Origin: an uncultured Planctomycetales bacterium
GTDB taxonomy: Bacteria > Omnitrophota > Gorgyraeia > Zapsychrales > Fredricksoniimonadaceae
NCBI GenBank assembly: GCA_964583975.1
Contig: CAZOXU010000001.1
Coordinates: 291,552 to 355,551, forward strand
Length of the DNA stretch: 64,000 nt
Reading direction: 5' to 3'
Under the pieces are notes generated by a model that was not told the DNA's origin, searched no databases, and was given only the letters and a program-made list of their open reading frames with translations. Both the position numbers and the translations under genes were made by a program. Below, in pieces: positions 4,313 to 62,178 of the stretch (positions are counted from its first letter, which is position 1; every line of letters begins with the position of its first letter).

Positions 4313-4315
4313 AAC

Positions 4316-5620
4316 TTAAAATAACGCTAATTGTTTTTCGATTTGGTCACGCTCACCATCTTTGAAAATCTCAACCGTGCCAAACTCTCCGTCATATCCT
4401 GCCGCGATTTTAATATCCCCTTTGCGCATTCGGTTGATACCTTCGGCAATCACTTCGCCTGCCAAGCGGCTAATCTGGTCAATCGGAGCATCGATTAAGA
4501 TGTAAAATTCATTTCCTAAGGAGCCTAACATTTTCATATAAGCTTCCTGTACAGCTTTACTGGCAGGCCCGACACCCTTGGCTTTGGCAATGATTTCTGG
4601 CAGAGGAACAATGTTCCAATAGGGACGATGACGTGGGCCTTTTTGTCCCTCGGGTCTATCCGCCAATTCCTCAACGCGGGCCATGACCCCGACAGTCACA
4701 GGTTTACCACAGCCTGAGCAGAGTCCTTTATTCTCAATCGTCTCTTTAGGATGCCAACGCACATGACACAGGCGATGGCCATCGTAATGGTACTTGCCTT
4801 CTTCAGGGAAAAACTCAATAGTACCTACCAATCCTCGATCTTTCTCTTCAGATAAAGCGCGGTAAATGGCCGAATAAGAAAAATCGGTATTAAAAATATT
4901 GGCTTCACGCCCTAACTTGGAAGGTGAATGCGCATCAGAGTTTGAGACTAAGATAAAAGGATCAAGTTGCTTTAAACGCCAATTCATAAGAGGATCGGAA
5001 GACAATCCTGTTTCAACCGCAAAGACATGCCGGGTTAAATCAGCAAAGCAATCTTCCATGCGATCAAATCCGCCCATTGAACCCAAAGCTGAAAACCATG
5101 GCGTCCAAATATGTGCCGGCACAAAAATATTCCTAGGGTCTGCTTCGAGGGTGATTTCCAAAAGATCACGGGAATCAAGCCCAAGAATTGGTCGGCCATC
5201 AGACTTTATATTACCAATGCTTCCAAGTTTTGCCTGGATCTTCTTAGCTGACTCGATCGATGGAACCCAGATCAAATTATGGACCTTACGCACACGATCC
5301 AAGCGTTTATAGATGTTAGAAATTTCAACGGTGAGCATGAAACGCACCGGCATACGACAAGCCGCAGGAAGCATCTTATCCATCTCTTTTGCATACTGAT
5401 CTTTAAGCTTATAAAAGCCTTCCTCAGCAGGCTCGAGTTTGTCTTCAATCTCTTTAAGCCATGCTGGGTGAACGAAATCCCCTGTACCAACTAAGTGAAT
5501 CCCCTTATATTGGGCCCAAAGGTAGAGATTTTCTAGATCAAGATTCTTGGCGGTGGCTCGAGAGTATTTGGAATGAATGTGCAGATCTGCGTAAAACTTC
5601 ATGCGGTCAGTATATCCCAA
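4316..5620 (-). CDS. PHP-domain nuclease with C-terminal Cys4 zinc ribbon, endonuclease Q (EndoQ)-like
   Basis: N-terminal DLHIHSKYSRA PHP metal-binding motif, HxxWxPW-like core, and CHVRWHP...CSGCGKP zinc ribbon; ~430 aa as for EndoQ-family proteins. Only 3 bp upstream of the helicase gene. Confidence 0.6.
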   Translation of the reverse strand: MGYTDRMKFYADLHIHSKYSRATAKNLDLENLYLWAQYKGIHLVGTGDFVHPAWLKEIEDKLEPAEEGFYKLKDQYAKEMDKMLPAACRMPVRFMLTVEISNIYKRLDRVRKVHNLIWVPSIESAKKIQAKLGSIGNIKSDGRPILGLDSRDLLEITLEADPRNIFVPAHIWTPWFSALGSMGGFDRMEDCFADLTRHVFAVETGLSSDPLMNWRLKQLDPFILVSNSDAHSPSKLGREANIFNTDFSYSAIYRALSEEKDRGLVGTIEFFPEEGKYHYDGHRLCHVRWHPKETIENKGLCSGCGKPVTVGVMARVEELADRPEGQKGPRHRPYWNIVPLPEIIAKAKGVGPASKAVQEAYMKMLGSLGNEFYILIDAPIDQISRLAGEVIAEGINRMRKGDIKIAAGYDGEFGTVEIFKDGERDQIEKQLALF

Positions 5621-5700
5621 GGGTTATAACGCGTCAACTGTCCGGAATTACCGGATAGTTGGATTATGCAAAGAATGCATATTGCTTTTCTGTACGGGGA

Positions 5701-8196
5701 TTAAATGACAATACTAACAAGCTTCTTGGGGACGACAATAATTTTCTTGATAGTAGCCCCTTCGAGATAGCGGGCCACATTGGCATCTGCCAGGCAGAGT
5801 TTTTTCAGATCTTCATCAGAGGTGCAAACCGATGTCGTAAACTGACCACGAACCTTACCATTGATTTGAACGGCATAGGTGACTTCATCTTGCACCAGGG
5901 CTCGCTCATCAAAGGCGGGCCAGGCGACCTTACTGACGGTCTGATCTTTTTTGCCCATCATCTGCCAAAGCTCTTCGCACAAATGCGGCGTAAATGGGGT
6001 TAACAATAAGACGAGGGTTTCAATGGCTTGATTCAACGTAACCGTTGATTCTTGCTTATACTTATCAACGGCATTTGCCAAGATCATAGCCTGACTAATG
6101 GCTGTATTAAATTTATAACCTTCTTCAAAAGCTTGGGTAATCTGTCGGATAGCTAGATGACGGGCACGCTCTAAGGTTTGATCTGCTCCCTGCTCGGTGG
6201 TTTCTTTCGCATAACGTTTCTCAACCATCAAGTAAACACGGTTTAAAAATCGCCAGGCCCCCTCTAAACCATCACTATTCCATTCGAGCTGATCTTCTGG
6301 CGGAGCAGCAAAAAGAATAAATAAACGTAAAGTATCTGCACCATATCTATTTAAAACTTCATCCGGATCAACTGTGTTGCCCCGAGATTTAGACATCACT
6401 TCTCCATCTTTAAGCACCATCCCCTGGGTTAAAAGACGGACAAACGGTTCATTTAAATCAGTTAGTCCTAAATCTTTGAAGAATTTAGTAAAAAAACGAG
6501 AGTACAACAAATGTAATATAGCATGCTCGATACCACCGATGTATTGATCGACCGCCATCCAATATTTGGCTTCATCCTTATTAAAGACTTCTTGGTTGTT
6601 ATCTGCAGAACAAAACCGTAAGAAATACCAGGAAGAATCAAAGAAGGTGGCCATGGTATCGGTTTCACGGCGGGCTGCTTTAGAACATTTAGGGCACTTC
6701 ACATTAACGAAATCTTCTACACGATTTAAAGGAGAGCCTCCCTGCCCCGTGATTTCCACATTCTTAGGTAATGCTACAGGCAATTGCGCATAAGGAACAG
6801 GAACCACACCGCAAGCCTCGCAATAAATCATGGGAATCGGCGTTCCCCAGTAACGCTGGCGGGAAATCAGCCAATCACGCAAGCGCCAATGAATGGTTGT
6901 TTTACCCATGCGTTCTTGAGCCATCCATTCAGCAATTTTCTTCTTAGCTTCTTCATTATTAAGACCATCAAATTGCTTCGAATTAACCAAAACACCCGCA
7001 TCTTCATAAGCCTTGGTCATATCTTTTAATTCAAAAACCTCTTTAGGGTTTTGAATAACAATTTTCATGGCAAGCTTATGGTTGGTAGCGAATTCAAAAT
7101 CGCGCTGGTCATGGGTGGGTACCGCCATAATGGCGCCAGTCCCATACTCCATCAATACATAGTCCCCAATATAAACCGGAATAGAATCACCATTAACAGG
7201 ATTGATGGCATAACGGCCTGTAAACACGCCTTCCTTACGCTGATCGCCTGACATACGAAGGCTTTTACTTTTATTGGCTGTCTTCTCAATAAAGGTCCCA
7301 ATTTCTTTTTCTTGAGGAGTGCCAGCGACAAGTTTTTTAACCAAAGGATGTTCTGGAGCCAGGACCACATAGGTAGCCCCAAAAATGGTGTCGGGACGGG
7401 TAGTGAAAACCGGAATAATTTCGTCCGTAGGGGCAGGCCCCTGTGCCTGCCCTTCTTGAGGGCGACCACGGGGGGTCGCCCCTACAATTTTAAAATAAAT
7501 CTCTACCCCAAAACTCTTACCAATCCAATTCTCCTGCATAGCTCGCACACGTGAAGGCCAATGCTCGAGCTGCTTTAAGTCTTCCAGTAAGGTTTCAGCG
7601 TAATGAGTAATCTTTAGATACCACTGATCTAAGTCTTTTTGTTCGACATTGTTTTTGCAGCGCCAGCAAGCGCCATCGATAACTTCTTCGTTGGCTAAGG
7701 TTGTCTGACAGCTAGGACACCAATTGACGGAAGAAGCTTTCTTATAGGCAAGCCCACGTTCATACATCTTTAAAAAGATCCACTGATTCCATCGGTAGTA
7801 GTCACTGTCGCAAGTGGCAATTTCACGGTCCCAGTCATAGGCAAAGCCCATTTTCTTGAGTTCTTCTCTCATCTGGTCGATACATTGGTAGGTCCACTGA
7901 CCTGGGTCGGTCTTATGTTTGATAGCCGCATTCTCAGCAGGCTGACCAAAGGCATCGTAGCCCATGGGGTGAAGCACATTAAACCCTTGCATCATTTTGT
8001 AACGGGCCATCACATCGCCGATGGTATAGTTACGCACATGGCCCATATGAATCTTGCCCGAAGGATAGGGAAACATTTCTAAGACATAATACTTCTTCTT
8101 AGAAGCATCCGCTTCGACTTTAAAAGTCTTGCGCTGTTCCCAGAAACGTTGCCATTTTGATTCAATGGATTTGATGTCGTTGGTGGTATAAGGCAT
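5701..8196 (-). CDS. leuS: Leucyl-tRNA synthetase
   Basis: HMGH (PSGKIHMGHVRNY) and KMSKS (VMSKSRGN) class-I motifs; TTRPDT editing-domain motif; bacterial LeuS length. Contains a 59-bp element insertion. Confidence 0.95.
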   Translation of the reverse strand: MPYTTNDIKSIESKWQRFWEQRKTFKVEADASKKKYYVLEMFPYPSGKIHMGHVRNYTIGDVMARYKMMQGFNVLHPMGYDAFGQPAENAAIKHKTDPGQWTYQCIDQMREELKKMGFAYDWDREIATCDSDYYRWNQWIFLKMYERGLAYKKASSVNWCPSCQTTLANEEVIDGACWRCKNNVEQKDLDQWYLKITHYAETLLEDLKQLEHWPSRVRAMQENWIGKSFGVEIYFKIVGATPRGRPQEGQAQGPAPTDEIIPVFTTRPDTIFGATYVVLAPEHPLVKKLVAGTPQEKEIGTFIEKTANKSKSLRMSGDQRKEGVFTGRYAINPVNGDSIPVYIGDYVLMEYGTGAIMAVPTHDQRDFEFATNHKLAMKIVIQNPKEVFELKDMTKAYEDAGVLVNSKQFDGLNNEEAKKKIAEWMAQERMGKTTIHWRLRDWLISRQRYWGTPIPMIYCEACGVVPVPYAQLPVALPKNVEITGQGGSPLNRVEDFVNVKCPKCSKAARRETDTMATFFDSSWYFLRFCSADNNQEVFNKDEAKYWMAVDQYIGGIEHAILHLLYSRFFTKFFKDLGLTDLNEPFVRLLTQGMVLKDGEVMSKSRGNTVDPDEVLNRYGADTLRLFILFAAPPEDQLEWNSDGLEGAWRFLNRVYLMVEKRYAKETTEQGADQTLERARHLAIRQITQAFEEGYKFNTAISQAMILANAVDKYKQESTVTLNQAIETLVLLLTPFTPHLCEELWQMMGKKDQTVSKVAWPAFDERALVQDEVTYAVQINGKVRGQFTTSVCTSDEDLKKLCLADANVARYLEGATIKKIIVVPKKLVSIVI
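7427..7485. repeat. Family II nested-palindrome element, copy A (59 bp), in-frame inside leuS
   Basis: GTAGGGG-CAGGcccctgtgCCTGCC-cttcttga-GGGCGACCacgggGGGTCGCCC-CTAC. Translated as RGRPQEGQAQGPAP immediately before the TTRPDT motif. Confidence 0.9.
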
Positions 8197-28585: not shown

Positions 28586-30709
28586 TTAAATAATTTTTGT
28601 TTCTAAATTAAACTCTATGGAAAACAAGGCCCTAAGGCTAATAAGTCCTAAAATAGCTATGGCCCATAAAATCCCTAAGAAAGCAAGAAAATAGCTCAAG
28701 AAAGACATGAAACCATTCCAATATTCTAACCTTAGTTCATACTCACCTTTGGGAAGAAAGACGGATTTAAAAGCTATATTAGCCCTTAACACATCTGTTG
28801 GGACATGATTAATGTAAGCCTTCCAGCCTGGATGATAGCCATCGGCATATATGAGCCAAGATCCTTCTTCCTGTTGAATGTTCACATGAGCCACAAGTTC
28901 ATTAGCATTAAATTTAGATACTTTCATTTGATCTTCTAAAGAAAGCAATTGTAGTTTAGGTTGCCCAATACCCGTCAAAGAGTCGCGCATGTCTGCCGAA
29001 AGTGAGCTATCCAGGAGCTTTCTAACATACTGATTGACCAATACAGCCTTATTTAATTGGCCGAAGCGAGGATCCATTTGAGCAAATCCCCAGAAGGTAT
29101 CATCGTAATGGGCCAGCGCTGCTTGTCTTAACTCTTTTTCCAAAAGCAAAGACAATCTTTGATGTTCATTGCTGGCTTCCCCAGCCCTTTGAAGCACATA
29201 TTCTAATTCATGAACATTGGTTGCTTTTAATAAATGCACAGAGGTTTTGGGTAAATGAGGCATCTTTTTGGCCAAAGCTTCTTGATAAAAAAAGCTATCC
29301 ACACCAAGAGATAGAAAAATACTGACCAAAAGCCATCGATAGTCTCCTCTGGCAATCAAAATCATCACTAGCGCAATCGCATAGCCCAAAAACCGATACT
29401 GAATGTTACTGTAATCGGCGCTTGTTAATAAATGACTCCATACACCTGAGTGTATGAGCATAAACACAACCGAACTAGCCTCCAAAGAACTATAAATGAG
29501 AAGCAACGATACGCCAAAACAGATCAAAAACTTCTTGAGTCTCACCTTTGATGCCGAGTTAAGTAAATCTGCAAGGCCAAAGCCTGCTCCGAGGATTATA
29601 AGAAGTTTGATAAGAGGAAGAATCAATCCGACATGACGAAAATATTTCATTCCTGGAAAGTAATAGACCAGATGCGTCAGCCAGCCTCCCATAGTTATCA
29701 AAATGAGAACCAGCACAGCCAAACCTATGCTCAGCGAATATTGGTTTCTATTATAGAGCATGGCCCAAATAAAGAAAAAGCTAGCAGCTAGTGTTGGATA
29801 AACGGTGTTATCAAACCCTGTCCCAATGTTGGTATAGGTTGGAACACCAAAGAACAACCATTTAACTATATTGGCATAGGTAGGATTACGTCCATAGTGA
29901 GCAAAAATATCGATGGTGTTCTGAGCATTACTGCGCGTGGCTATATTGATACTATCAAAGGCATGGATTAAAAAAAATAGGTAACTTGCAAGAACTCCCG
30001 TAAAGATAGCAAACGACAAAAAGTCCTTGGATGATTGAGGCATCAACGCTCGTAAAGCTTCCTTTTGGGAGATGAGAAGAACCGTGGCGATTAGAAAGAA
30101 AACAAAAAACCATAATGGCGCAAAATAAACCCCGCTTCCCAGCGCCCAGATAACACCAACTGTTGCGCTGATCCATAAATAAAAAGACTTCTGACGTTGA
30201 AAAAATAGCACTAAAAAATAAAAGACCCACGGAAGGTAATCATAAATCTTAAAATTAAAAAATATTTGATAGCTCCAATCCAAACTACACAAAGCACTCA
30301 GACAGACAAAAGCCACTACAGCTCTTCGGTTAAAAAACAATCGGGATAAGAAATAAAGACCGCTAACAAATATCGATTGTTTTAAAATCATGCCGATTTT
30401 AAAGAGACACAGCACATCTTGGATGGCAAAAATCTTACCCAAAACGAACATTAAATAGTCCACCGGTGAGAATGAAGATATTTGTGCTTCAGCGCCAGGG
30501 ATTCCATAAACTCCATAAGGCAACCACTGTGCTAAAATATGATGAAAATAAAATTCATTGTAGAAAAAATAAAAATGCTCAAAAACAGACAAGGTATCAT
30601 GCTGGGGATAAAAATTAGGACTGAAATAACGAAGATTGATAAAGATCACAGCTGCCAAAATCGAAAGAAAACAATAATCGATCTTTAAATTAAGACGGCT
30701 TTTAATCAT
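28586..30709 (-). CDS. YfhO-like polytopic membrane protein (putative glycosyltransferase) with C-terminal extracytoplasmic domain
   Basis: About 12 TM helices across the first ~450 aa, then a soluble ~200-aa domain and a final TM helix. Confidence 0.45.
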   Translation of the reverse strand: MIKSRLNLKIDYCFLSILAAVIFINLRYFSPNFYPQHDTLSVFEHFYFFYNEFYFHHILAQWLPYGVYGIPGAEAQISSFSPVDYLMFVLGKIFAIQDVLCLFKIGMILKQSIFVSGLYFLSRLFFNRRAVVAFVCLSALCSLDWSYQIFFNFKIYDYLPWVFYFLVLFFQRQKSFYLWISATVGVIWALGSGVYFAPLWFFVFFLIATVLLISQKEALRALMPQSSKDFLSFAIFTGVLASYLFFLIHAFDSINIATRSNAQNTIDIFAHYGRNPTYANIVKWLFFGVPTYTNIGTGFDNTVYPTLAASFFFIWAMLYNRNQYSLSIGLAVLVLILITMGGWLTHLVYYFPGMKYFRHVGLILPLIKLLIILGAGFGLADLLNSASKVRLKKFLICFGVSLLLIYSSLEASSVVFMLIHSGVWSHLLTSADYSNIQYRFLGYAIALVMILIARGDYRWLLVSIFLSLGVDSFFYQEALAKKMPHLPKTSVHLLKATNVHELEYVLQRAGEASNEHQRLSLLLEKELRQAALAHYDDTFWGFAQMDPRFGQLNKAVLVNQYVRKLLDSSLSADMRDSLTGIGQPKLQLLSLEDQMKVSKFNANELVAHVNIQQEEGSWLIYADGYHPGWKAYINHVPTDVLRANIAFKSVFLPKGEYELRLEYWNGFMSFLSYFLAFLGILWAIAILGLISLRALFSIEFNLETKII

Positions 30710-49402: not shown

Positions 49403-49855
49403 TTATTTCATAAACTTCTTCTCAATCGCTTGAATCTGTTCAAATCGTCTCTGGTGACGACCACCTTCAAATGGGGTAGTTAACCAAGTCTCAACTATAG
49501 GAATGATATTGGCAGCTTCAATAAAAAGTGAGCCTAAAACTAAAATATTGGAATTGTTATGTTCACGCGATAACTTAGCAGCTTCCTTGGTATAACACAA
49601 AGCCGCATAGGCGCCTGGAACTTTATTGGCAGCAATTGAATGTCCTATTCCTGTCATACACACTAGAATTCCACGAGCATCGGCATTGCCAGCAACCTTG
49701 CTTGCCACCTCTAAAGAAAATTGCGGGTAATCACAACCCATTTCTTCTTGAAAGGTGCCTACATCAACTACTTCATGCCCCTTTTTGCTTAAGGATTCCA
49801 CAATGCTCTTTTTTAATTCGAATCCTCGATGATCTGCGCCAATATAAATTTTCAT
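49403..49855 (-). CDS. rpiB: Ribose-5-phosphate isomerase B
   Basis: RpiB/LacAB fold; ~150 aa with the active-site region GIGHSIAANK. Confidence 0.85.
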   Translation of the reverse strand: MKIYIGADHRGFELKKSIVESLSKKGHEVVDVGTFQEEMGCDYPQFSLEVASKVAGNADARGILVCMTGIGHSIAANKVPGAYAALCYTKEAAKLSREHNNSNILVLGSLFIEAANIIPIVETWLTTPFEGGRHQRRFEQIQAIEKKFMK

Positions 49856-50919
49856 TACAAAAGCTCCACAATACGTTCGATCGCTTCATTAATATTTAAC
49901 AAGCACTCTTCATAAGCCACATGGGATTGACCAATAGGATCTGGAATATCTTCATTGCCTTCAGGGCCAGCAGCGTGATGGCAGAATTCTTTTAAAAGAT
50001 ACACGCGCTGCTCAACATAGGGCACATGATCTAAAATTTGGGCGCGATGTGACCTAGTCATAGCCAAAATTAAATCTGCTTTGCGTAGCATCGTCCTGCC
50101 TAATGGCTTTGAAATATGAGCAGCGGCATTAATGCCTCGTTGGCGTAATACCGTTAAAGTCTCTTGGCTGGCAGAAGATTTAAAAAACACATTGGTGCCT
50201 GCGGAGAGGACTTCAACATCTTCGCGGCCAATCAACTTAGCTTTTAGCAAATATTCAGCCATAACTGAGCGACAGCTGTTTCCTGTGCAGACAAACAATA
50301 CAACCTTCTTATTAACCGCACGATCCACATCAGATTGACTGATCACTCCTTCACGAATCACTGTTGGCTTAGGTTTGGTGAAATCGACAATCGTTGAGGA
50401 AACACCAAATTCCACTGGCCCGCCATCAATGGCTAAATCAACCAATCCATCCAAATCTTCCAAGGCTTCAAAAACATTGGTCGGCGCTTTCTTACCTTCT
50501 AAATTTGCGGAAGGAGCGGCAATTGTGCAACCAGATTGCTGCACCAAATTAAGAGCAATAGTGTGATCTGGCATACGGATCCCCACCGTATCCTGGCCAT
50601 CCTTGGTTGGCACAATGACAGTTAACGGTCCTGGCCAATATTTATCAATGAGCTTATATAAATTTGGTTTTGTATAATTCGCATAATTCTCAACAATCCC
50701 TCTTTGAGCGACCAAAATTGAATATCGCTTACCGTCTGAACGTTTTTTAACGGATGATAAACGTTCTATCGCTTGGGGATTATTAGCATCAGCCGCAATC
50801 CCATAGACGGTCTCGGTCGGAAAAACAACCAAGCCTCCCTGGCGAATAATACGGGCAGCCTCGCTGATTTTGTCAGATTCAGGAACAGCAGGATTAATTT
50901 TGAGAATCTTGGTTCGCAT
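49855..50919 (-). CDS. tsaC: Fusion protein: L-threonylcarbamoyladenylate synthase TsaC/Sua5 (N) + low-molecular-weight protein (Tyr/Arg) phosphatase (C)
   Basis: N-terminal YrdC domain (VVFPTETVYGIAADA) and C-terminal LMW-PTP P-loop VLFVCTGNSCRS. Confidence 0.75.
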   Translation of the reverse strand: MRTKILKINPAVPESDKISEAARIIRQGGLVVFPTETVYGIAADANNPQAIERLSSVKKRSDGKRYSILVAQRGIVENYANYTKPNLYKLIDKYWPGPLTVIVPTKDGQDTVGIRMPDHTIALNLVQQSGCTIAAPSANLEGKKAPTNVFEALEDLDGLVDLAIDGGPVEFGVSSTIVDFTKPKPTVIREGVISQSDVDRAVNKKVVLFVCTGNSCRSVMAEYLLKAKLIGREDVEVLSAGTNVFFKSSASQETLTVLRQRGINAAAHISKPLGRTMLRKADLILAMTRSHRAQILDHVPYVEQRVYLLKEFCHHAAGPEGNEDIPDPIGQSHVAYEECLLNINEAIERIVELL

Positions 50920-52268: not shown

Positions 52269-52295
52269 GTACGGGCTGGGTAACCCAGCCCCTAC
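52269..52295. repeat. Mini single-hairpin relative of Family II: GTACGGG-CTGGGtaaCCCAG-CCCCTAC
   Basis: Shares the CCCCTAC terminus; the other terminus is one mismatch from GTAGGGG. Fills the purM-purD intercistronic gap and overlaps the purM stop. Confidence 0.6.
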
Positions 52296-53299
52296 CCTAT
52301 AAAAATAATTTTCTTCTTATTATCAGAAACAACCTTACCAATCACAAATGATTCTAATTTCAACTGACGAAGGAACGCTTGCACCTTAACAACATCCTTG
52401 GGTGCAACAACCAAGCTCAATCCAATTCCCATATTAAAGGTGCGATACATATCATGCTCAGGCACATGGCCCTTATCTTGAATCAAGGTAAATATACGTG
52501 GCACAGGCCAGCTACCCTTATGTATAGAGAAGGCCAATCCCTTTGGTAAAACCTTGGTTAATTTCTCATACCAAGCACCGCCGGTCATGTGCGCCATGCC
52601 CTTGACGGTAAACTTTTCTAATAAAGCTAAAACTGGCTTCACATAAATACACGTTGGTTTGAGCAAAATCTGTGCATAGTCTCGTTGTTCTTTAGCGCTT
52701 AAAGCTTTGCGAGCCAGAGAATATCCATTGGAGTGTAATCCTGAGGAAGGCAAACCAATGACCACATCACCGTCTTGGATTTTTGTACCATCTATAATAC
52801 GATCGCGCTCAACAATTCCTACAGTAAACCCTGCTAAATCGTAGTCTTCGCCTCGGTACATATCGGGCATTTCAGCGGTCTCGCCCCCGATGAGAGCGCA
52901 GCCGGCCTGATGACATCCAGCCACAATGCCCTTCATCACATCCTTCATCATCCGGTTATTGAGTTTGCCGGTCGCAATATAATCGAGGAAGAACAATGGT
53001 TTAGCACCCGTACACAAGACATCATTGACGTTCATGGCTACCAAATCAACGCCTACCTTATCATGCTTACCAACCAAATTAGCAACAAGAAGTTTGGTGC
53101 CAACGCCATCCGTCGAAGAAACAAGGACTGGATTTTTATATCCTTTTAAATCCAAAGCAAACAAAGCACCAAACGAACCTGGACGATTTAATACCCCTTT
53201 ACTGATGGTTGATCGAGCCAAGCCTTTGATATCATCGACAAAGCGATTGGCCTTAGCAATATCCACACCAGCTTTTTTATAGGTTAATGATAGTTTCAT
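52292..53299 (-). CDS. purM: Phosphoribosylformylglycinamidine cyclo-ligase
   Basis: AIR synthase family; 335 aa. Confidence 0.9.
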   Translation of the reverse strand: MKLSLTYKKAGVDIAKANRFVDDIKGLARSTISKGVLNRPGSFGALFALDLKGYKNPVLVSSTDGVGTKLLVANLVGKHDKVGVDLVAMNVNDVLCTGAKPLFFLDYIATGKLNNRMMKDVMKGIVAGCHQAGCALIGGETAEMPDMYRGEDYDLAGFTVGIVERDRIIDGTKIQDGDVVIGLPSSGLHSNGYSLARKALSAKEQRDYAQILLKPTCIYVKPVLALLEKFTVKGMAHMTGGAWYEKLTKVLPKGLAFSIHKGSWPVPRIFTLIQDKGHVPEHDMYRTFNMGIGLSLVVAPKDVVKVQAFLRQLKLESFVIGKVVSDNKKKIIFIG

Positions 53300-53325
53300 A
53301 GCTTAAAATTCCTAAAGATAAAAAT

Positions 53326-54045
53326 TTATGAAATGATCTTAAGAATATCTTTTTGTAGATCGTTAATACTCTTAACTTTGGCAGATTCATCAAATTGTTC
53401 TTTTGCTAAATATATTCCATCAAGTTCATATTCCATAACGATCCGCGCTTTTCTTGGCTTTTTATTATCCCCCTCACCTCTAATAAAACTAATCTCATCA
53501 TCATTATCCGGAGTAATCATAAAAACACGTATCGCTTTTGTATTTGGATTTTCTTTTAATTTTAATTTCCAAAAAGGTGTTTCAGTATACCTCTCTCGAA
53601 AAGAATTCTTCACAGATAAAATACAAATGATATTAACTTTCTTTATTTTCTCTTGATACTTATAAATAATCATGTCCGCATCAGGCAAAAGAGCATATTC
53701 TTCAAAATGAACCATAATTGCTCGCTTTACAAGATCGTGCTCTCCATCTCGAACATTCTTCAAATTCTTATCTTTAATAATTCTTAAATTATATTTCTGA
53801 CAAAAGTCTTCCAAAGAAGATGCGACGATTTTTTCAAGAGAACTACCAACAAAACTCACCCATCCTTGTCGACTCTTATTTTGCGCTTCTGACTCACTGA
53901 ATCCAGACTTCTTCCATTGAGCACTTTTATTTCTCATAAAAGTTATACGCATTTTATTTAAAAAGTCTCCCAATAAACTCAATGTGCGATCTTTATGAAC
54001 AGTTTTAAATTTATTAAACTCTTTTTCTAATTCTTTATAATCCAT
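53326..54045 (-). CDS. Candidate type II restriction endonuclease (partner of the adjacent methyltransferase)
   Basis: AT-rich gene 23 bp downstream of a DNA methyltransferase, inserted inside the pur operon. Possible PD..(S/E)xK-like core LLPDADMIIY...ILSVK. No family recognisable by eye. Confidence 0.4.
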   Translation of the reverse strand: MDYKELEKEFNKFKTVHKDRTLSLLGDFLNKMRITFMRNKSAQWKKSGFSESEAQNKSRQGWVSFVGSSLEKIVASSLEDFCQKYNLRIIKDKNLKNVRDGEHDLVKRAIMVHFEEYALLPDADMIIYKYQEKIKKVNIICILSVKNSFRERYTETPFWKLKLKENPNTKAIRVFMITPDNDDEISFIRGEGDNKKPRKARIVMEYELDGIYLAKEQFDESAKVKSINDLQKDILKIIS

Positions 54046-54068
54046 AGTTAGATTCCTTCACAAAAATC

Positions 54069-54884
54069 TTACTTAAATAAAACTTCCGTAAACTCTTCTA
54101 ATCTTCTACGGGCCAATTGACAATAATTCTTATCTATGTCAACTCCTATGCCTTTTCGATTATGAATTGTAGCTTCAATTAAAGTCGTGCCGCTTCCTAA
54201 AAACGGATCTAAAACCACATCTCCAATATAACTAAACAATTTAACACATCTTTTGGGCAATTCTCGAGGGAATGGCGCAGGATGACCTATCCTCTTCTTA
54301 CTTTCACCGTTAAATGTCCACACACCGTTAGTCCATCCCATAAACTCTTCTTTTGTAATATCATTTTCCCGACTTCCTCCAACTTTCTTCCAATCTTTTT
54401 TATACAAAATCACAATCAATTCAACAGGAGCAATAACGTATGGAGCAGAAGCGCTCATCCAGGAGCCCCATGCCGTTCTACGAGATATGTTTCCTTCATT
54501 CCAAATAATTGTTGAATGATATTTCCATCCTATACTTTTTGCAATAGCAGTGATGTCTGAGCCTACACTTTGTTGACCATTTTTATTCTTGTCTAAAGGA
54601 ATATTTAAACAAAATCTTCCTTCGTCTTTGGAAAGCTCAAAACATTTTTTAATCCATTTTCTTGTAAATTCTAAATAATCAGTATAAGAAGTTTGGTCAT
54701 TATGAGAATTATATTTAATATCTACGTTATAGGGAGGGGATGTGACAATCAAATCAATGCTAGATAGTGGAATTGCATCGGTCAATATAAAGTCATCATT
54801 TATAATCTTTAGATCTTCATTTTCATAAAAAACTTTTCTCTTTTTTTTCATTTCATCAGTATTAATTAACAATGTGTCTTCCAT
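54069..54884 (-). CDS. Beta-class amino-DNA methyltransferase (N4-cytosine or N6-adenine); SPPY catalytic motif precedes DPFLGSGTT SAM-binding motif
   Basis: Motif IV TSPPYNV followed ~180 aa later by motif I VLDPFLGSGTT (beta permutation). SPPY favours N4-cytosine specificity. Confidence 0.8.
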   Translation of the reverse strand: MEDTLLINTDEMKKKRKVFYENEDLKIINDDFILTDAIPLSSIDLIVTSPPYNVDIKYNSHNDQTSYTDYLEFTRKWIKKCFELSKDEGRFCLNIPLDKNKNGQQSVGSDITAIAKSIGWKYHSTIIWNEGNISRRTAWGSWMSASAPYVIAPVELIVILYKKDWKKVGGSRENDITKEEFMGWTNGVWTFNGESKKRIGHPAPFPRELPKRCVKLFSYIGDVVLDPFLGSGTTLIEATIHNRKGIGVDIDKNYCQLARRRLEEFTEVLFK

Positions 54885-55014
54885 GTATCCTCCCGTTTTT
54901 ATGGAATGTTATAAATGCGTTGGGGAGGACGCAAGGTTACAAAAATCTATTTAATCAACATGGGGAATGTTGTGACATTCTATACTTAACTTTATGATTT
55001 ACCAAATAATAAAT

Positions 55015-55812
55015 TTAGAAGACTTTTTCTTTAATATATTTAACGCCATTTTCAAAAATCTTAGCTCCATCTCCAAGCTTCGACTTCTTATCTAATCTCG
55101 ACCAAAATGGATGGTGCTGAAATAAGAAATGACGTTCTGGATGCGGCATTAATCCTAACACACGTCCTGTCGTATCACAAATACCTGCGATGTGCTCGGT
55201 TGAACCATTAGGATCCTGGGGATACTCAGGTGCCCCACCATTTTGAGTACAATAATGAAATATAATCTGACCATTGGCTTTCAATGTTTCTAGCACCTTA
55301 GCATCGCGAGGAATAAATTTCCCTTCCCCATGAGCTACGGGCAAATAAATTTGACTAGGCAAATCCTTGGTCCATACACTTTTATTGCCAGTTACCGACA
55401 AATGCACCCAGCGTGCTTCAAATTTGGCTGAATCATTATGAAACAAGGTTGCTTCTTGACCCTGATGCTGATTTAAGCCCGGTAAGATTCCTGCCTTAAC
55501 TAAAATCTGAAAACCATTGCAGATTCCAATGATGAGTTTTCCTTGAGCGACAAACTTCTTTAAATCATCGGCTAATTTCAGCCGTAATTCATTGGCCAGG
55601 ATTCGACCTGAGGCAATATCATCGCCATAACTAAATCCACCAGGCAGCGCCATGATATGAAAATCAGCAAGTTTCACTCGTCCTGAAACAAGTTCATTAA
55701 TATGGATCTGCTTAACAACAGCCCCAAAATGAGAAAAGGCCGCAGCTGTTTCTTCATTGCAGTTGGTTCCTGCTGTTCTCAAAACTAAGACATTAACGGC
55801 GTTTTTTAGCAT
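55015..55812 (-). CDS. purQ: Phosphoribosylformylglycinamidine synthase subunit PurQ (glutaminase)
   Basis: Class-I GATase triad region GICNGFQ and C-terminal His; 265 aa. Confidence 0.85.
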   Translation of the reverse strand: MLKNAVNVLVLRTAGTNCNEETAAAFSHFGAVVKQIHINELVSGRVKLADFHIMALPGGFSYGDDIASGRILANELRLKLADDLKKFVAQGKLIIGICNGFQILVKAGILPGLNQHQGQEATLFHNDSAKFEARWVHLSVTGNKSVWTKDLPSQIYLPVAHGEGKFIPRDAKVLETLKANGQIIFHYCTQNGGAPEYPQDPNGSTEHIAGICDTTGRVLGLMPHPERHFLFQHHPFWSRLDKKSKLGDGAKIFENGVKYIKEKVF

Positions 55813-56479
55813 AAAATTTCTTAATCAGATTAATGACATCTTCAGGTTTATCAACAAGCTGGATAATCCCCAATTCTTCTTTGTGAACACAACCTTCTTG
55901 CAACATCGGTCCGTGCATCCAATCGATGAACCCTTTCCAATAGGCGCTGCCGTAAAGAATAACGGGAAAACGTTCCATACGTTGCGTTTGGATGAGCGTC
56001 AAACTTTCAGATAATTCATCAAGGGTTCCATAACCGCCCGGAAAAATCACAAAGGCTTTCGCGTATTTCACAAAACAAACCTTACGGCAGAAAAAGTAAT
56101 GAAAATTAATCAAATGATTGATGTGATCATTGGGTTTTTGTTCAAAAGGTAAATCAATATTCATACCAATCGATTTACCACCAGCCATGGTCGCACCTTT
56201 GTTTCCTGCTTCCATAATGCTTGGACCACCACCAGTAATGACCGCATAGCCTGCCTTCACTAATAATTGGGCTGTCTTTTGGGCAGCCACATAATATTTA
56301 TGTCCGGGTTTAATACGTGCTGAACCAAAAATACTAACGGCGGGCCCCACATCCTTCATTTCTTCAAAACCATCGACGAATTCCGCCATGATTCTAAAAA
56401 TGCGCCAAGGATCTTCTAATATGTCTAAATCAGGAACGTGCGGGTGTCGTGTTCGGGACTGTTTCTTTGCCATGTTCAC
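55793..56479 (-). CDS. LOG-family nucleotide 5'-monophosphate nucleosidase (TIGR00730-like)
   Basis: GGGPSIMEAGNKGA and PGGYGTLDE LOG motifs. Confidence 0.8.
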   Translation of the reverse strand: MNMAKKQSRTRHPHVPDLDILEDPWRIFRIMAEFVDGFEEMKDVGPAVSIFGSARIKPGHKYYVAAQKTAQLLVKAGYAVITGGGPSIMEAGNKGATMAGGKSIGMNIDLPFEQKPNDHINHLINFHYFFCRKVCFVKYAKAFVIFPGGYGTLDELSESLTLIQTQRMERFPVILYGSAYWKGFIDWMHGPMLQEGCVHKEELGIIQLVDKPEDVINLIKKFYAKKRR

Positions 56480-59367
56480 CTCAATGGGGTTTGCCAGATA
56501 TCTTTCAAATCAAAAATATCAGCGTTAATAATAACTTGATCCTTAAAACCATACACAATCATTTGTGGTGTTGTCTCAACTGTTGCGATCTTGGCATGGG
56601 CAATTCCTGCAAAAATCTTCTTAAAAGATTTTTCGTGGCGAGGTTCAACTTCCAGCAACAGCCTTGAATTACTCTCAGAGAATAAGACTACTTCTTCTTT
56701 ACGACGAACGCCTTGATAAGGCACATTTTTAACGAACCCTGTGACCCCAAGCCCACCAGCAAAAGCCATTTCAGCTAAGGCAACTGCAATACCTCCCTCA
56801 GAAACATCATGAGCTGAAGATATCAATCCTGCTTGATTAGCCTTTTCGATAGCTCGGTATGTTTTGATGGCTGATTTAAAATTAACTTTTGGAACATTTT
56901 GACCCAATTGTTCACTGTTAGCTAAATAAATACTTCCGCCTAGTTCATCTGAGCTTCTTCCCACAATATAAATGCTGTTTCCTGCTTTTTTCAAATCCAT
57001 GGTGAGGGTCTTAGCGCTATCTTCAACAATCCCGATAGCTGAAATTAAAATCGTGCCAGGAATGGCCAAAGATCGACCTTTATGCGCATATTCATTATAA
57101 AGACTGTCTTTACCTGAGATAAATGGCGCTCCAAAAGCTTTAGCAGCTTCATAACATCCTTGTGCACAACGAACCAGAGACCCTAAGCGATCGCTTTTAT
57201 CAGGATTACCCCAACAGAAATTATCCAACAGAGCTATTCTCTCTAAACTTCCGCCTACGGCAACGATCTGGCGAATTGCTTCATCAATACAAGAGGCTGC
57301 CATCCAAAAAGGATCAACCATCCCAAAACGAATATTAATGCCATTGCTGATCGCGACCGCTTTCTTGGAACCACGTACAGGAGAAAGAACAGCTGCATCA
57401 GACGGTCCATCGGTATGAACGCCCACCAGAGGTTTAATCACGCTAGTTGCCTGTACTTCATGATCATACACACGAATGATGGATTCTTTTGAAGCTACGT
57501 TTAAATGAGCCAGCGCAGCACAAAGATCATCATTGAGATCTTTTTTAGCTTTCAGTGTTTCTTTCTTCAATTTTGGAGCTTCATACACAGCTTCCTTGGT
57601 AATCTTAGGAAGACCATCGTGCAAGAAATGCATGTCTAAATCACAAACCTGGTGTCCTTGGAAAAATAATTGCAATCGTCCGCTGCCATCAAACTCGCCT
57701 AAGACCACGGCTTCGACATTTTCATCAGCAAAAACTTTTAAGAGCTCCTCGACCTTGGTTGGCGGGACTGACAAGACAATTCTTTCTTGCGATTCTGAAA
57801 TCCAAATTTCGGTGTAATTAAGACCTTGGTATTTTAAAGGAGCTCGATCCAAATCCACACGCGCGCCAGTCTGCGAACCCATTTCTCCCACAGCTGAAGA
57901 AAAACCACCAGCCCCGCAATCGGTGATCGCTGAATAAAGGTTACGATCGCGTGCTTTAAGAAGCGCATCCAAGACCTTCTTCTCTTCAATAGGATTACCA
58001 ATCTGTACCGCACCTGAAGAGACAGTTTCCGATTCACTGGTTAATTCACCTGAAGAAAAAGTGGCTCCATGAATACCATCGCGACCAGTTCGTCCACCGA
58101 CCGCAACAATCACATCGCCCTTATTGACCTTCTTAAATTCTTTGCCCTTAGGAATGATGCCTACGTTACCACAAAAGACCAATGGATTACCGACAAAATG
58201 CTTATCAAATACAATGGCGCCGTTAACAGTTGGGATCCCCATCTTATTGCCGTAATCACGGACCCCGGAAACAACCCCTTTCATCACACGTCTAGGATGC
58301 AGCGCTCCAGATGGAATCTCACTGGCTGGTGTATCAGGAGGTGCAAAACAAAATACGTCGGTATTAGCTAGAGGCTTGGCTGCCAAACCGGTACCTAAAA
58401 TATCACGAATGACACCGCCGACTCCGGTATTGGCTCCACCAAAAGGCTCAAGAGCTGAAGGATGATTGTGTGTCTCAACCTTAAAACACACATGATAATC
58501 CTTATCAAAGCTGATAATGCCTGCATTGTCATGAAAAACCGAGACACACCATTTTTTCTTTAAATCATTAGTGACCTTAGCAATCGTACTTTTAAATAAA
58601 CTACGGATAATCTGCGGCCGGCCTTTTTTACCCTCACGGTAACGGATGATGCCGCGAAACGTCTTATGATTACAGTGCTCACTCCAGGTTTGCGCAATGG
58701 TTTCTAATTCCACATCGGAGGGATTGCGGCCCTCCTTCTTAAAATGCGCCTGGATGGCTCGCATCTCATCAAGATTTAAATACAGTTGGCCTTTTTGGGA
58801 GAGCTCTTTTAACTGCCGATCATTGGCAGAAAGAAGATCAACAACTACTACGTCAAATTTAGTCTTGGCAGCAGCACTAATTAAAAGTGTTGATGGAATA
58901 GCCTGTGCCGCGTTCTTAACAGAATGCTGGATCAGTTTATTCATGAGCACGCGGGAGGTAATATGCTCAATTTCCTTCTCGGATAAACGTCCGAATAGAT
59001 GATATTGCTTAGCTGTACGCACAGCTTTGATACCATCAATGCCTAAATCACGAATACCTTTGATAGTGGATGCCTCCACGGGGTCCATGACTCCAGGATT
59101 GTAAGCAACTTCCACGATGTGGTGGTCTGAAGATGTCTTGGCTAGGGAAAATGAAAAGCCATATTCTTCAACGATAGGGTCAACTAAAAGCTCTTCACAG
59201 ATTTTTTTGACATCATCACGGCCAATGTCGCCCTCTAAAAGGTAAACACTCACCATCGAAACACGATCGAGGTGAGTGATCCCTAAATCTGTAATGTCTT
59301 TTAAAACAGCAGCGCCAGCGGAATCTAATAATCCGCTTTTTTGTCGAATTTCAACACGCCAAATCAT
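56476..59367 (-). CDS. purL: PurS-PurL fusion: phosphoribosylformylglycinamidine synthase II with N-terminal PurS domain
   Basis: First ~80 aa resemble PurS (MIWRVEIRQKSGLLDSAGAAVLKDI...); the remainder is PurL with duplicated AIRS-like domains. Confidence 0.9.
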   Translation of the reverse strand: MIWRVEIRQKSGLLDSAGAAVLKDITDLGITHLDRVSMVSVYLLEGDIGRDDVKKICEELLVDPIVEEYGFSFSLAKTSSDHHIVEVAYNPGVMDPVEASTIKGIRDLGIDGIKAVRTAKQYHLFGRLSEKEIEHITSRVLMNKLIQHSVKNAAQAIPSTLLISAAAKTKFDVVVVDLLSANDRQLKELSQKGQLYLNLDEMRAIQAHFKKEGRNPSDVELETIAQTWSEHCNHKTFRGIIRYREGKKGRPQIIRSLFKSTIAKVTNDLKKKWCVSVFHDNAGIISFDKDYHVCFKVETHNHPSALEPFGGANTGVGGVIRDILGTGLAAKPLANTDVFCFAPPDTPASEIPSGALHPRRVMKGVVSGVRDYGNKMGIPTVNGAIVFDKHFVGNPLVFCGNVGIIPKGKEFKKVNKGDVIVAVGGRTGRDGIHGATFSSGELTSESETVSSGAVQIGNPIEEKKVLDALLKARDRNLYSAITDCGAGGFSSAVGEMGSQTGARVDLDRAPLKYQGLNYTEIWISESQERIVLSVPPTKVEELLKVFADENVEAVVLGEFDGSGRLQLFFQGHQVCDLDMHFLHDGLPKITKEAVYEAPKLKKETLKAKKDLNDDLCAALAHLNVASKESIIRVYDHEVQATSVIKPLVGVHTDGPSDAAVLSPVRGSKKAVAISNGINIRFGMVDPFWMAASCIDEAIRQIVAVGGSLERIALLDNFCWGNPDKSDRLGSLVRCAQGCYEAAKAFGAPFISGKDSLYNEYAHKGRSLAIPGTILISAIGIVEDSAKTLTMDLKKAGNSIYIVGRSSDELGGSIYLANSEQLGQNVPKVNFKSAIKTYRAIEKANQAGLISSAHDVSEGGIAVALAEMAFAGGLGVTGFVKNVPYQGVRRKEEVVLFSESNSRLLLEVEPRHEKSFKKIFAGIAHAKIATVETTPQMIVYGFKDQVIINADIFDLKDIWQTPLR

Positions 59368-60071: not shown

Positions 60072-61366
60072 TATTTTATCCCCGCACGTTTAAAGATTTT
60101 ATCACGATGACGAATGTAGTATTTGATATCGAATGCACCATCGATTTCATTTTTAGATAAATACTTACGAACATGACGATCACGGTACAACACATCCTTG
60201 AATTCAGAAGATTCTTGCCAAACTTGCATGGCGCAAGACTGGACAATATCGTAAGCCGCATCACGAGAAAGACCTTTTTTCATTAATTCCAATAGCAAAC
60301 GTTGAGAATAAATCAATCCTCTGGTTTTGGATAATGAGGTGATCATGTTCTTTGGATAAACCAAAAGTCCCTCGATGATTGGGATGAATTTATTGATCAT
60401 GTAATTTAAAGCGATTGTAGAATCTGGTAGGATGACGCGCTCAGCAGATGAATGGCTGATATCACGTTCGTGCCATAAGTTGATATTTTCAAAGGCAACG
60501 ATGGCATTGGCTCTCAGGATACGAGAAAGACCGCAGATTCTTTCGCAGGTCACAGGATTTCTCTTATGAGGCATGGCCGAAGAACCAATTTGTCCTTTGA
60601 AGAAAGGCTCTTCAACTTCTAGAATCTCGGTTTTTTGTAAGGAACGAATTTCAGTAGCAAACTTCTCTAGTGAGCAACCAATCATCGCAATAACGCTGAC
60701 CAGCTGGCAATGCAAATCACGCTGCAAGATTTGCGTGGCCACATTAGCTGGTTTTAAATTCAATTGTTCACATACATATTCTTCGACAGAAGGATCAATG
60801 TTGGCATATGTACCGACAGCGCCAGAAAGTTTACCATAGCGCATCATTTCACGGGCTTGCTCTAAACGTTCTAAATTGCGAGTCATTTCATCATACCAAA
60901 TGGCCAATTTCAAACCAAAGGTCGTTGGTTCGGCATGTACCCCATGAGTACGAGCAATACAAACGGTGTCTTTATATTTTTTGGCTTTTTCTTTAATAAC
61001 AGCATTGAGCTTTTTGACATCGGAAATAAGAATATCGCAAGCTTCCACGCATTGCATCGATAAAGAGGTGTCTAACAGATCTGATGAAGTCATTCCCATG
61101 TGAAGATATTGCGCTTCTGGTCCAAGGCTCTGTCCTACGTTTTGGATGAATGCTACAACATCATGCTTAGTGCGTTCTTCTAAGCGACGAACTTCTTCTA
61201 AGTCAAATTTGGCATTCTTATTAATTTTGTCCATAGCTGCTTTAGGGATCATTCCTAATTTTGTCATGGCTTGGCAGGCTAAGATTTCAATTTTTAGCAT
61301 AATTTCCATCTTATGCTCGTCGGACCAAATGCGACTCATTTTTGACAGGGAATAACGATCAATCAT
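60071..61366 (-). CDS. purB: Adenylosuccinate lyase
   Basis: Fumarase/aspartase family signature GSSAMPHKRNP. Confidence 0.9.
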   Translation of the reverse strand: MIDRYSLSKMSRIWSDEHKMEIMLKIEILACQAMTKLGMIPKAAMDKINKNAKFDLEEVRRLEERTKHDVVAFIQNVGQSLGPEAQYLHMGMTSSDLLDTSLSMQCVEACDILISDVKKLNAVIKEKAKKYKDTVCIARTHGVHAEPTTFGLKLAIWYDEMTRNLERLEQAREMMRYGKLSGAVGTYANIDPSVEEYVCEQLNLKPANVATQILQRDLHCQLVSVIAMIGCSLEKFATEIRSLQKTEILEVEEPFFKGQIGSSAMPHKRNPVTCERICGLSRILRANAIVAFENINLWHERDISHSSAERVILPDSTIALNYMINKFIPIIEGLLVYPKNMITSLSKTRGLIYSQRLLLELMKKGLSRDAAYDIVQSCAMQVWQESSEFKDVLYRDRHVRKYLSKNEIDGAFDIKYYIRHRDKIFKRAGIK

Positions 61367-61551
61367 GGTAACTCCTTGAAAATACGGTTAATAAAATGTA
61401 GCTAAACAATTCAACCTCATTGATTTAGGGTGGGTGTGAAAGCGGGATAGAATATAGCAAAGAATATTTATTAGGTCAATCTAAAAAACACCACTTCCCA
61501 ACTATAAATATTGTAAGATATTGATATATATGCACTTACGTATATAAAAAA

Positions 61552-62178
61552 TTATTTGGTTTCCATCATTTCAGGAAATTTTTCCTTTAAATAACTAGCA
61601 CTTACATCCACGCTTTCTTTCATAATCTCACCAATGTGCCCTACGAGCTTCTTTCCCTTTTCCGAAGAGTAAAATTCAATATAGGTATTTAATTCCACCG
61701 AAGTAAAGTGCTTGTCATATAAAGGGATAAGTCTTTCAATAATTTCATCAACCTTGACTCGTTCACGAATTTTAGCCGCCATATCTGGCTTTTGTTGCTC
61801 CACCGCACTTAACATGGCTTCCATATTTTGAGCCATAACCTTGCGCGTGCCAAAAACTTCAATGAATTTTAGGATTAACGCTCTTTTTTGGACAGGATCA
61901 TCTTCGGTCTTGCTTGATATTGCATTCACAATAGAGCCGCCAACCGATTGAATAGGGACCTGAACCTGTTGTGAAGCAATCAATGGCTGGCCATCGATAT
62001 CTTTAATCTCATCTGCAAAATAGGTAATCTCTGTTCCATTAACCTCCACAGTCACACTTTTAAAATCTCTTTTGGTAATTTTTCCAACGATGGTTTTTCC
62101 ATCGTTTAAATTCACAGTCTCAGCCAGAGCTAAAGAACTCAAAGATAAAAATAGGACCGACAAAAATATTTTCTTCAT
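61552..62178 (-). CDS. Secreted hypothetical protein
   Basis: Signal peptide MKKIFLSVLFLSLSSLALA; no motif recognised. Confidence 0.3.
   Translation of the reverse strand: MKKIFLSVLFLSLSSLALAETVNLNDGKTIVGKITKRDFKSVTVEVNGTEITYFADEIKDIDGQPLIASQQVQVPIQSVGGSIVNAISSKTEDDPVQKRALILKFIEVFGTRKVMAQNMEAMLSAVEQQKPDMAAKIRERVKVDEIIERLIPLYDKHFTSVELNTYIEFYSSEKGKKLVGHIGEIMKESVDVSASYLKEKFPEMMETK

Follow-up and report, generated by a model that had tools for sequence, protein, structure and literature searches.

Among the CCGG family's type II restriction endonucleases, BsaWI (W/CCGGW; Pfam PF18643; structure 4ZSF) has a helical domain at the N-terminus and a C-terminal domain of the PD-(D/E)XK type, with an active site formed by E92, D145, K165 and D175; its R169-D170-R171 triplet reads CCGG, and K85 contacts the outer base (PMC4652773). 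AgeI (A/CCGGT) and Kpn2I (T/CCGGA; 6EKR) share the same fold and the same catalytic and recognition logic, and an Asn or Gln residue that contacts the minor groove (N81 in BsaWI) is kept in the CCGG family (PMC5389614). Here, we analyzed two adjoining genes, coding for a DNA methyltransferase (M) and a relative of these nucleases (R), which are located between the purine biosynthesis genes purQ and purM of an uncultured bacterium of the phylum Omnitrophota. They lie at positions 53300–55014 of a 64,000-nucleotide stretch of contig CAZOXU010000001.1 (hereafter the window). The 1715-bp segment is very probably a horizontally acquired type IIP restriction-modification (R-M) pair, M followed by R, whose nuclease belongs to the BsaWI branch and whose SPPY-containing methyltransferase (MTase) protects the host DNA.

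Two other known systems are relevant to this locus. The PspGI R-M system, which recognizes CCWGG, reportedly combines a CCGG-family nuclease with an SPPY N4-cytosine MTase and flips the central base of its interrupted site. As far as that report goes, the pair described here resembles PspGI in that a CCGG-family endonuclease is accompanied by a beta-class amino-MTase and not by a C5-MTase. On the other hand, R-M complexes are known as selfish mobile units found in operon-like clusters, and defence hot spots flanked by core genes have been recognized. Similar to such units, the segment is a gene pair of foreign composition which lacks mobility genes and sits between housekeeping genes, at a junction whose cargo varies among related genomes.

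The nuclease gene (53326–54045, minus strand) encodes a protein of 239 amino acids (aa). An earlier note on this DNA, made from the sequence alone, had found no recognisable family for this protein and had proposed that it may represent a new family of restriction endonucleases, with a possible PD...(S/E)xK-like core. We found that it matches the Pfam family RE_BsaWI (PF18643) over positions 5–104 of the 105-position profile with 100.5 bits (cut-off 26.2, E-value 6.6e-29). Homologs were detected in large numbers: 742 in a set of 5.8 billion proteins (E ≤ 1e-3), several of which carry the NCBI name "BsaWI family type II restriction enzyme", and a profile of 53 homologs retrieved 299 clusters at 50% identity from 1.84 billion representatives, 167 of them at E ≤ 1e-10. 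The only sequence of a solved structure matched by the family profile is 4ZSF. An AlphaFold2 model built on the homolog alignment (mean pLDDT 88.4, pTM 0.84) shows a three-helix domain at the N-terminus, followed by a catalytic domain of the alpha/beta type, and a Foldseek search of PDB with this model returned 4ZSF as the best match (E 5.7e-5, probability 1.00), followed by Kpn2I (6EKR, E 0.019, probability 0.91); no PDB entry other than 4ZSF was matched at E ≤ 0.001. Thus, neither the absence of a family nor the novelty held up. The protein is a PD-(D/E)XK-type endonuclease in which the permuted E...D...K residues are conserved.

The functional residues of BsaWI were located in the nuclease by a profile alignment of its clade to 4ZSF, and their conservation was assessed over the 53 homologs. 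The active-site residues E92, D145 and K165 correspond to E71 (kept in at least 90% of the homologs), D124 (which follows P121-D122) and K146, respectively, the latter two being invariant. The CCGG-reading triplet of BsaWI corresponds to R150-E151-R152, also invariant, and the minor-groove residue N81 to Q60, which is either Q or N in the homologs. The positions invariant in this comparison include P121, D122, D124, S144, K146, R150, E151, R152 and E155. As in BsaWI, the active site is permuted (E...D...K...acidic residue), and the R-(D/E)-R motif comes right after the catalytic lysine. In contrast, identity in the structural alignment is 13%, the protein is shorter (239 vs 272 aa), the motif is R-E-R instead of R-D-R, and K85 is replaced by S64 in a variable column. 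The segment after the motif is also 2 residues shorter than in BsaWI. A second acidic residue is found approximately 10 positions after the lysine in both BsaWI (D175) and AgeI (D178); E155, at position +9, is the likely candidate for the fourth catalytic residue in place of an Asp at +10. Neither AgeI nor Kpn2I gave a significant sequence match in PDB searches, and their extra elements for the outer base pair could not be identified in the nuclease. Judged by its sequence and modelled fold, the nuclease belongs, as a diverged but intact member, to the BsaWI/AgeI/Kpn2I branch within the CCGG family. It thereby adds an uncharacterised enzyme from an uncultured phylum to this branch.

Given this placement, the predicted core site is CCGG, and a CCGG-core site is most likely what the nuclease cuts. 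The specificity for flanking bases cannot be read from the sequence, since the residue that contacts the outer base in BsaWI is S64 here. The nuclease would bind as a dimer or higher oligomer, with R150-E151-R152 reading the CCGG core from the major-groove side and Q60 from the minor-groove side, and E71, D124, K146 and E155 would cut before the first C, leaving 4-nt 5' overhangs. For those searching for new enzymes, it may be of interest that the R-E-R clade, which lacks the outer-base lysine, may have a flanking specificity new among CCGG-family enzymes. A literature search on the methylase type of BsaWI or on methylomes yielded nothing usable. The insert itself contains a single NCCGGN hexamer (TCCGGA, 53507–53512), which codes for the invariant T178-P179-D180 of the nuclease.

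The MTase gene (54069–54884, minus strand, 271 aa) is located upstream of the nuclease gene. Its product matches N6_N4_Mtase (PF01555) over the full profile (E 1.7e-46, 159 bits) as well as the PADLOC model MTase_II (PDLC03353, E 1e-100). Motif IV (TSPPYNV, aa 48–54) precedes motif I (DPFLGSGTT, aa 225–233), which is the order typical of the beta class and agrees, together with the Pfam match, with the beta-class amino-MTase proposed in the earlier note. Among solved structures, the closest relative is 2ZIE (TTHA0409, also with SPPY; E 9.5e-27), followed by two uncharacterised "methyltransferases", the cytosine-N4 MTases 8S9N and 8S9M, and then enzymes that produce N6-methyladenine (m6A). It is known that m6A enzymes such as CcrM have DPPY at motif IV. 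SPPY is motif IV of N4CMT, an N4-cytosine MTase (PMC10406627). From this motif alone, the MTase is probably N4-cytosine specific, and it would shield the host sites most likely by N4-methylation of cytosine.

If the two genes form a functional R-M system, they should remain together in other genomes. All five homologous loci that were examined pair a PF18643 nuclease with an adjoining PF01555 MTase; the nuclease is of the window type in three of them and belongs to a 267-aa branch in the other two, and the genes are arranged in three ways (M>R, R> <M and R>M). In the closest pair (L083), the order is M>R with overlapping genes, and R and M are 67% and 78% identical to those of the window; the two genes are convergent in L084, and R precedes M in Helicobacter equorum (L086/L087). 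The MTases beside the three window-type nucleases are 65–78% identical to the window MTase. Such linkage, kept despite gene shuffling, is a classical signature of a functional R-M pair. It supports the original proposal of a type II R-M cassette, which here comprises a beta-class MTase and a PD-(D/E)XK-type endonuclease encoded by separate adjoining genes. The closest MTase homologs (79–80% identity; L088, 4001–5685, and L089, 4001–5678) have a different partner, a 267-aa PF18643 nuclease with just 24% identity to that of the window and with H-S-R in place of R-E-R. The L088 pair belongs to a related Omnitrophota genome, whose pur operon lies elsewhere on the same contig. Thus, the phylogenies of MTase and nuclease do not track each other, which suggests, as far as these sequences go, either partner swapping or isoschizomeric branches. 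The M-R cassette itself is an ordinary type II R-M pair with a nuclease of known family.

Homologous cassettes elsewhere are also found inside co-directional pairs of housekeeping genes. In H. equorum (3617–6484), the R-M genes directly follow purB (adenylosuccinate lyase), and in L089 (3072–7571), M, the 267-aa R and one additional open reading frame (ORF) lie between the genes for RNase PH and a Ham1/RdgB-family protein.

The base composition of the segment is clearly different from that of its surroundings. Its GC content is 0.318, compared with a mean of 0.414 (standard deviation (SD) 0.025) for all 1715-bp segments of the window, and the minimum of the whole window begins at 53303, i.e., at the insert. 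The GC contents of M and R are 0.304 and 0.335 vs 0.417 ± 0.024 in 47 other ORFs (z = −4.7 and −3.5), and the corresponding values at third codon positions (GC3) are 0.24 and 0.26 vs 0.383 ± 0.042 (z = −3.4 and −3.0). The earlier note, which had correctly placed the two minus-strand ORFs and described them as AT-rich, had named uniform GC and codon usage as a point that would speak against acquisition; both genes are 3 to 4.7 SD below the other ORFs.

We then compared the locus with related pur operons. A PurM scan of GTDB species representatives yielded 80 loci, essentially all from Omnitrophota, the closest having PurM proteins 79–82% identical to that of the window, which accordingly derives from a species of this phylum not yet sampled. 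Using tblastn with eleven window proteins, the same gene order was observed in all 80 loci, and no homolog of M or R was detected in any of them. In most of these loci purQ and purM abut or overlap (ATGA), and in several insert-free ones (L004, L006, L008, L009 and L075) the purQ stop codon overlaps the purM ATG, an arrangement of translational coupling. The spacing of the two genes, whose comparison had been suggested in the earlier note, has a median of 2 bp in the 55 close loci, defined by the presence of both genes and a PurM identity of at least 59%. In the window, the ancestral ATGA overlap has been replaced by a new purQ stop codon and a new AGGA ribosome-binding site (RBS) for purM. 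By composition and distribution, the M-R cassette is horizontally acquired, as had been supposed.

The insert contains no transposase or integrase gene and hence is not an autonomous mobile element, and no convincing terminal direct or inverted repeats or target duplication were found at its ends. A DNA-level comparison with the closest homologous cassettes revealed no conserved flanks, the similarity to the closest one stopping inside the coding regions. No vector could be identified, as homologs of the nuclease were absent from plasmid, phage and IMG/VR collections. Entry by homologous recombination through the conserved flanks of the insert is the simplest guess. A short sequence at the purQ end (GTCTTCTAA), which resembles ancestral purM codons (AAGTCTTTAA), was considered as well and dropped as likely due to chance.

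Several observations weigh against the interpretation of the segment as an intact BsaWI-type R-M pair. Similarity to BsaWI is remote: a single-sequence phmmer search of PDB with the nuclease gave no match, the clade profile reaches 4ZSF only at E 0.12, and the TM-score between the model and 4ZSF is 0.46. The invariant E155 is one position off D175 of BsaWI in the alignment, and residues 151–155 are the only low-confidence segment of the model (pLDDT <50); the matching recognition loop is disordered in the pre-specific crystal of BsaWI (PMC4652773). With regard to the MTase, neither NCBIfam models nor PDB matches assign N4-methylcytosine or m6A, the top NCBIfam matches being adenine-specific models far below cut-off. 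The host DNA was also scanned for avoidance of all 6-mer and 4-mer palindromes and of the CCGG-hexamer classes, with Markov expectations and relatives as references. CCGG occurs 64 times in the window vs 122 expected from a first-order model (observed/expected ratio (O/E) 0.53), compared with an O/E of 1.07 in six pooled relatives. However, the cassette-free loci L003 and L012 have similarly low CCGG values, and no avoidance of WCCGGW is seen in the window (O/E 0.81), so that the predicted site is not confirmed by the host DNA.

In the same scan of the 64 kb, the YCCGGR class had an O/E of 0.33, the depletion of CCGG was about as strong as that of CTAG and TGCA, and GATATC, ATCGAT and CGATCG were over-represented two-fold or more.

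These observations bear on two other explanations. The lack of site avoidance, together with the imperfect alignment of the fourth catalytic residue in a low-confidence loop, would fit a decaying or domesticated remnant, with an inactive nuclease and an MTase that works as a solitary epigenetic methylase within the pur transcript. We consider this unlikely, as both ORFs are of full length and without frameshifts, the family-invariant positions, including catalytic and recognition residues, are kept, and the un-ameliorated GC content points to a recent arrival with little time for decay. That the nuclease founds a new restriction endonuclease family, with only a vague PD...(S/E)xK core, could be argued from the empty single-sequence search of solved structures and from the profile searches which the earlier note had proposed for both proteins: these succeeded with PF01555, PADLOC and PF18643, but the nuclease has no model in NCBIfam or PADLOC. 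Such a possibility can practically be dismissed; it is ruled out by the Pfam match, the homologs named after BsaWI and the Foldseek match at probability 1.00, and the R-(D/E)-R motif and catalytic residues of the CCGG family are conserved.

The origin of the segment could also be explained differently. A cassette ancestral to the operon and lost in the relatives, instead of gained in this lineage, would be compatible with the variability of the junction across the clade, which means that losses must also happen. On the other hand, none of the 80 related loci has it, not even the closest ones, its GC and GC3 are 3–5 SD below those of host genes, the nearest homologous cassettes occur in unrelated contexts, and further back in ancestry this junction was occupied by purF (see below); ancestral presence is therefore very unlikely. 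It is yet more improbable that the AT-rich segment entered the pur operon through a wrong join during assembly. The genome was indeed assembled from a metagenome, and the purQ-M junction is supported by this assembly only. However, a Logan contig from a different run (SRR12487046; L001), which is an independent assembly, reproduces part of M followed by R, purM and purD at 100% identity, an ENA contig (L002) reproduces M-R, and the reading frames, the RBSs and the orientation of the operon fit together at both junctions. Acquisition of a complete R-M pair remains the interpretation which we favor.

The insert extends from the end of purQ (55015) to the start of purM (53299). Only the two R-M ORFs fit into it, and no controller-protein ORF is present on its minus strand. 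M and R are 23 bp apart on one strand and have the orientation of the operon, and R is separated from purM by a 26-bp spacer (53300–53325) which carries the AGGA RBS. Both ORFs are full length compared with their homologs and are preceded by a Shine–Dalgarno sequence, that of M being strong (GGGAGGA, 54893–54887, 5 nt before the ATG). A promoter/terminator scan revealed no terminator-like site in the insert and one weak sigma-70-like match (55005–54977), promoter-like matches being no commoner than in shuffled sequences. Unless there is an internal promoter, transcription of purM must cross the cassette. Co-orientation, tight spacing and the lack of a terminator-like site fit read-through from the pur promoter, so that the read-through expression suggested previously is plausible. 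The cassette is probably co-transcribed with purQ and purM, possibly aided by a weak promoter of its own, and M would be translated before R. Once established, the cassette would be an addictive defence module that is hard to lose. The AT-rich spacer of 130 bp that separates M from the purQ stop (54885–55014, minus strand) contains, besides the Shine–Dalgarno sequence and the weak promoter match, an anti-Shine–Dalgarno sequence (CCUCCCC, 54928–54922) that could pair with GGGAGGA approximately 28 nt away. This pairing was seen when the spacer was folded, with a z-score of only −1.6. We conjecture that the hairpin could throttle translation of the MTase on read-through transcripts.

The variability of the purQ–purM junction is more unusual than the cassette itself. 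When an insert was defined as more than 250 bp between the two genes, 10 of the 55 close loci had one. Gaps of this size are rare at the other junctions: none of the loci has one at purL–LOG, LOG–purQ or sua5–rpiB, one has it at purC–purL and one at rpiB–glyA, and two have it at purM–purD; the uniform gap of ~450–650 bp at purD–sua5 looks like a conserved small gene. The cargo at purQ–purM differs from locus to locus. The closest relative, L003, has a toxin-antitoxin pair of the Phd/YefM and ParE/YoeB-like types (7338–8000). A GmrSD type IV restriction enzyme is encoded in L005 (5720–8000), Fic in L013 (658–2026), HicA and an SPFH protein in L025 (6553–8000), a SnoaL-like protein in L010 (1164–1623), two small ORFs in L048 (7253–8000), and unknown ORFs in L007 and L046. 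Locus L059 (4931–8000), which with 59% PurM identity is just under the cut for the close clade and is not counted among the ten, has genes for a nucleotidyltransferase and for HEPN-like, HSDR_N and AP-endonuclease-fold proteins. In all of these loci except L046, the GC content of the insert is below that of its flanks. The main cargo ORFs are in the direction of the operon in 10 of 10 loci as well as in the window, which would occur by chance with a probability of about 2^-10 if the insertions are independent events.

In L003, an almost perfect palindrome (ATATGTACATTAATATGTACATAT) as well as a TTGACT box are present before the toxin-antitoxin insert (7400–7470). They look like the promoter/operator of an autoregulated toxin-antitoxin system, and at least some cargo thus brings its own promoter.

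Purine operons of the classical Bacillus type have purF between purQ and purM. The same position is occupied by purF (GATase_7 and Pribosyltran domains) in the deeper relatives L064 (6322–7908), L068–L073 (e.g., L070, 6556–8001) and L077. Thus, the hot spot corresponds to the site of purF loss in the clade of the window, and the earlier statement that most pur operons have purM next to purQ is true of this Omnitrophota clade but not in general. In contrast to known defence hot spots, this one is situated within a biosynthetic operon, where two genes overlap and are translationally coupled, and all of its cargo is co-oriented. One may go further and regard purQ–purM as a genuine hot spot within the operon, which repeatedly captures small selfish or defence modules without an obvious promoter and only in operon orientation, and suppose that the R-E-R clade may have a new specificity. 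We hold this stronger version only tentatively, at somewhat less than even credence; the evidence for the hot spot consists of simple gap counts over 80 loci. If it is true, expression of the cargo would ride on, and be coupled to, transcription of purine biosynthesis genes. The comparison as a whole, with addiction or defence cargo that differs by species at one overlap inside an essential biosynthetic operon, is relevant to the question of how bacteria that are streamlined and uncultured gain defence genes, and express them, in the absence of specialised mobile-element machinery.

The remainder of the operon was annotated from ORFs and Pfam matches. All genes are on the minus strand in the order purB-purC-purS/L-LOG-purQ-[M-R]-purM-purD-sua5-rpiB-glyA. 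The upstream flank of the insert is purQ (55015–55812), which codes for the glutaminase subunit of formylglycinamide ribonucleotide amidotransferase (FGAM synthase; PF13507 GATase_5, E 6.9e-81), and the downstream flank is purM (52292–53299), which codes for aminoimidazole ribonucleotide (AIR) synthase (PF00586 AIRS and PF02769 AIRS_C). Apart from the insert, 500-bp stretches with GC <0.35 occur in the window only at 61100–61800 and 30201–30700. The former covers the intergenic region upstream of purB, where the operon promoter likely lies; a search with Rfam at gathering thresholds found no riboswitch or other RNA family in the whole window, including this region. A LOG ("possible lysine decarboxylase"; PF03641, SLOG) gene (55793–56479, minus strand) lies between purS/L and purQ, overlaps both neighbours and is found at the same position in nearly all related loci, which makes it an unusual component of the purine operon, apparently fixed in Omnitrophota. 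Two gene fusions were also observed, both on the minus strand: a 963-aa protein (56476–59367) carries PurS at the N-terminus of PurL, and a 354-aa protein (49855–50919) combines a Sua5/YrdC domain with a low-molecular-weight phosphotyrosine phosphatase domain.

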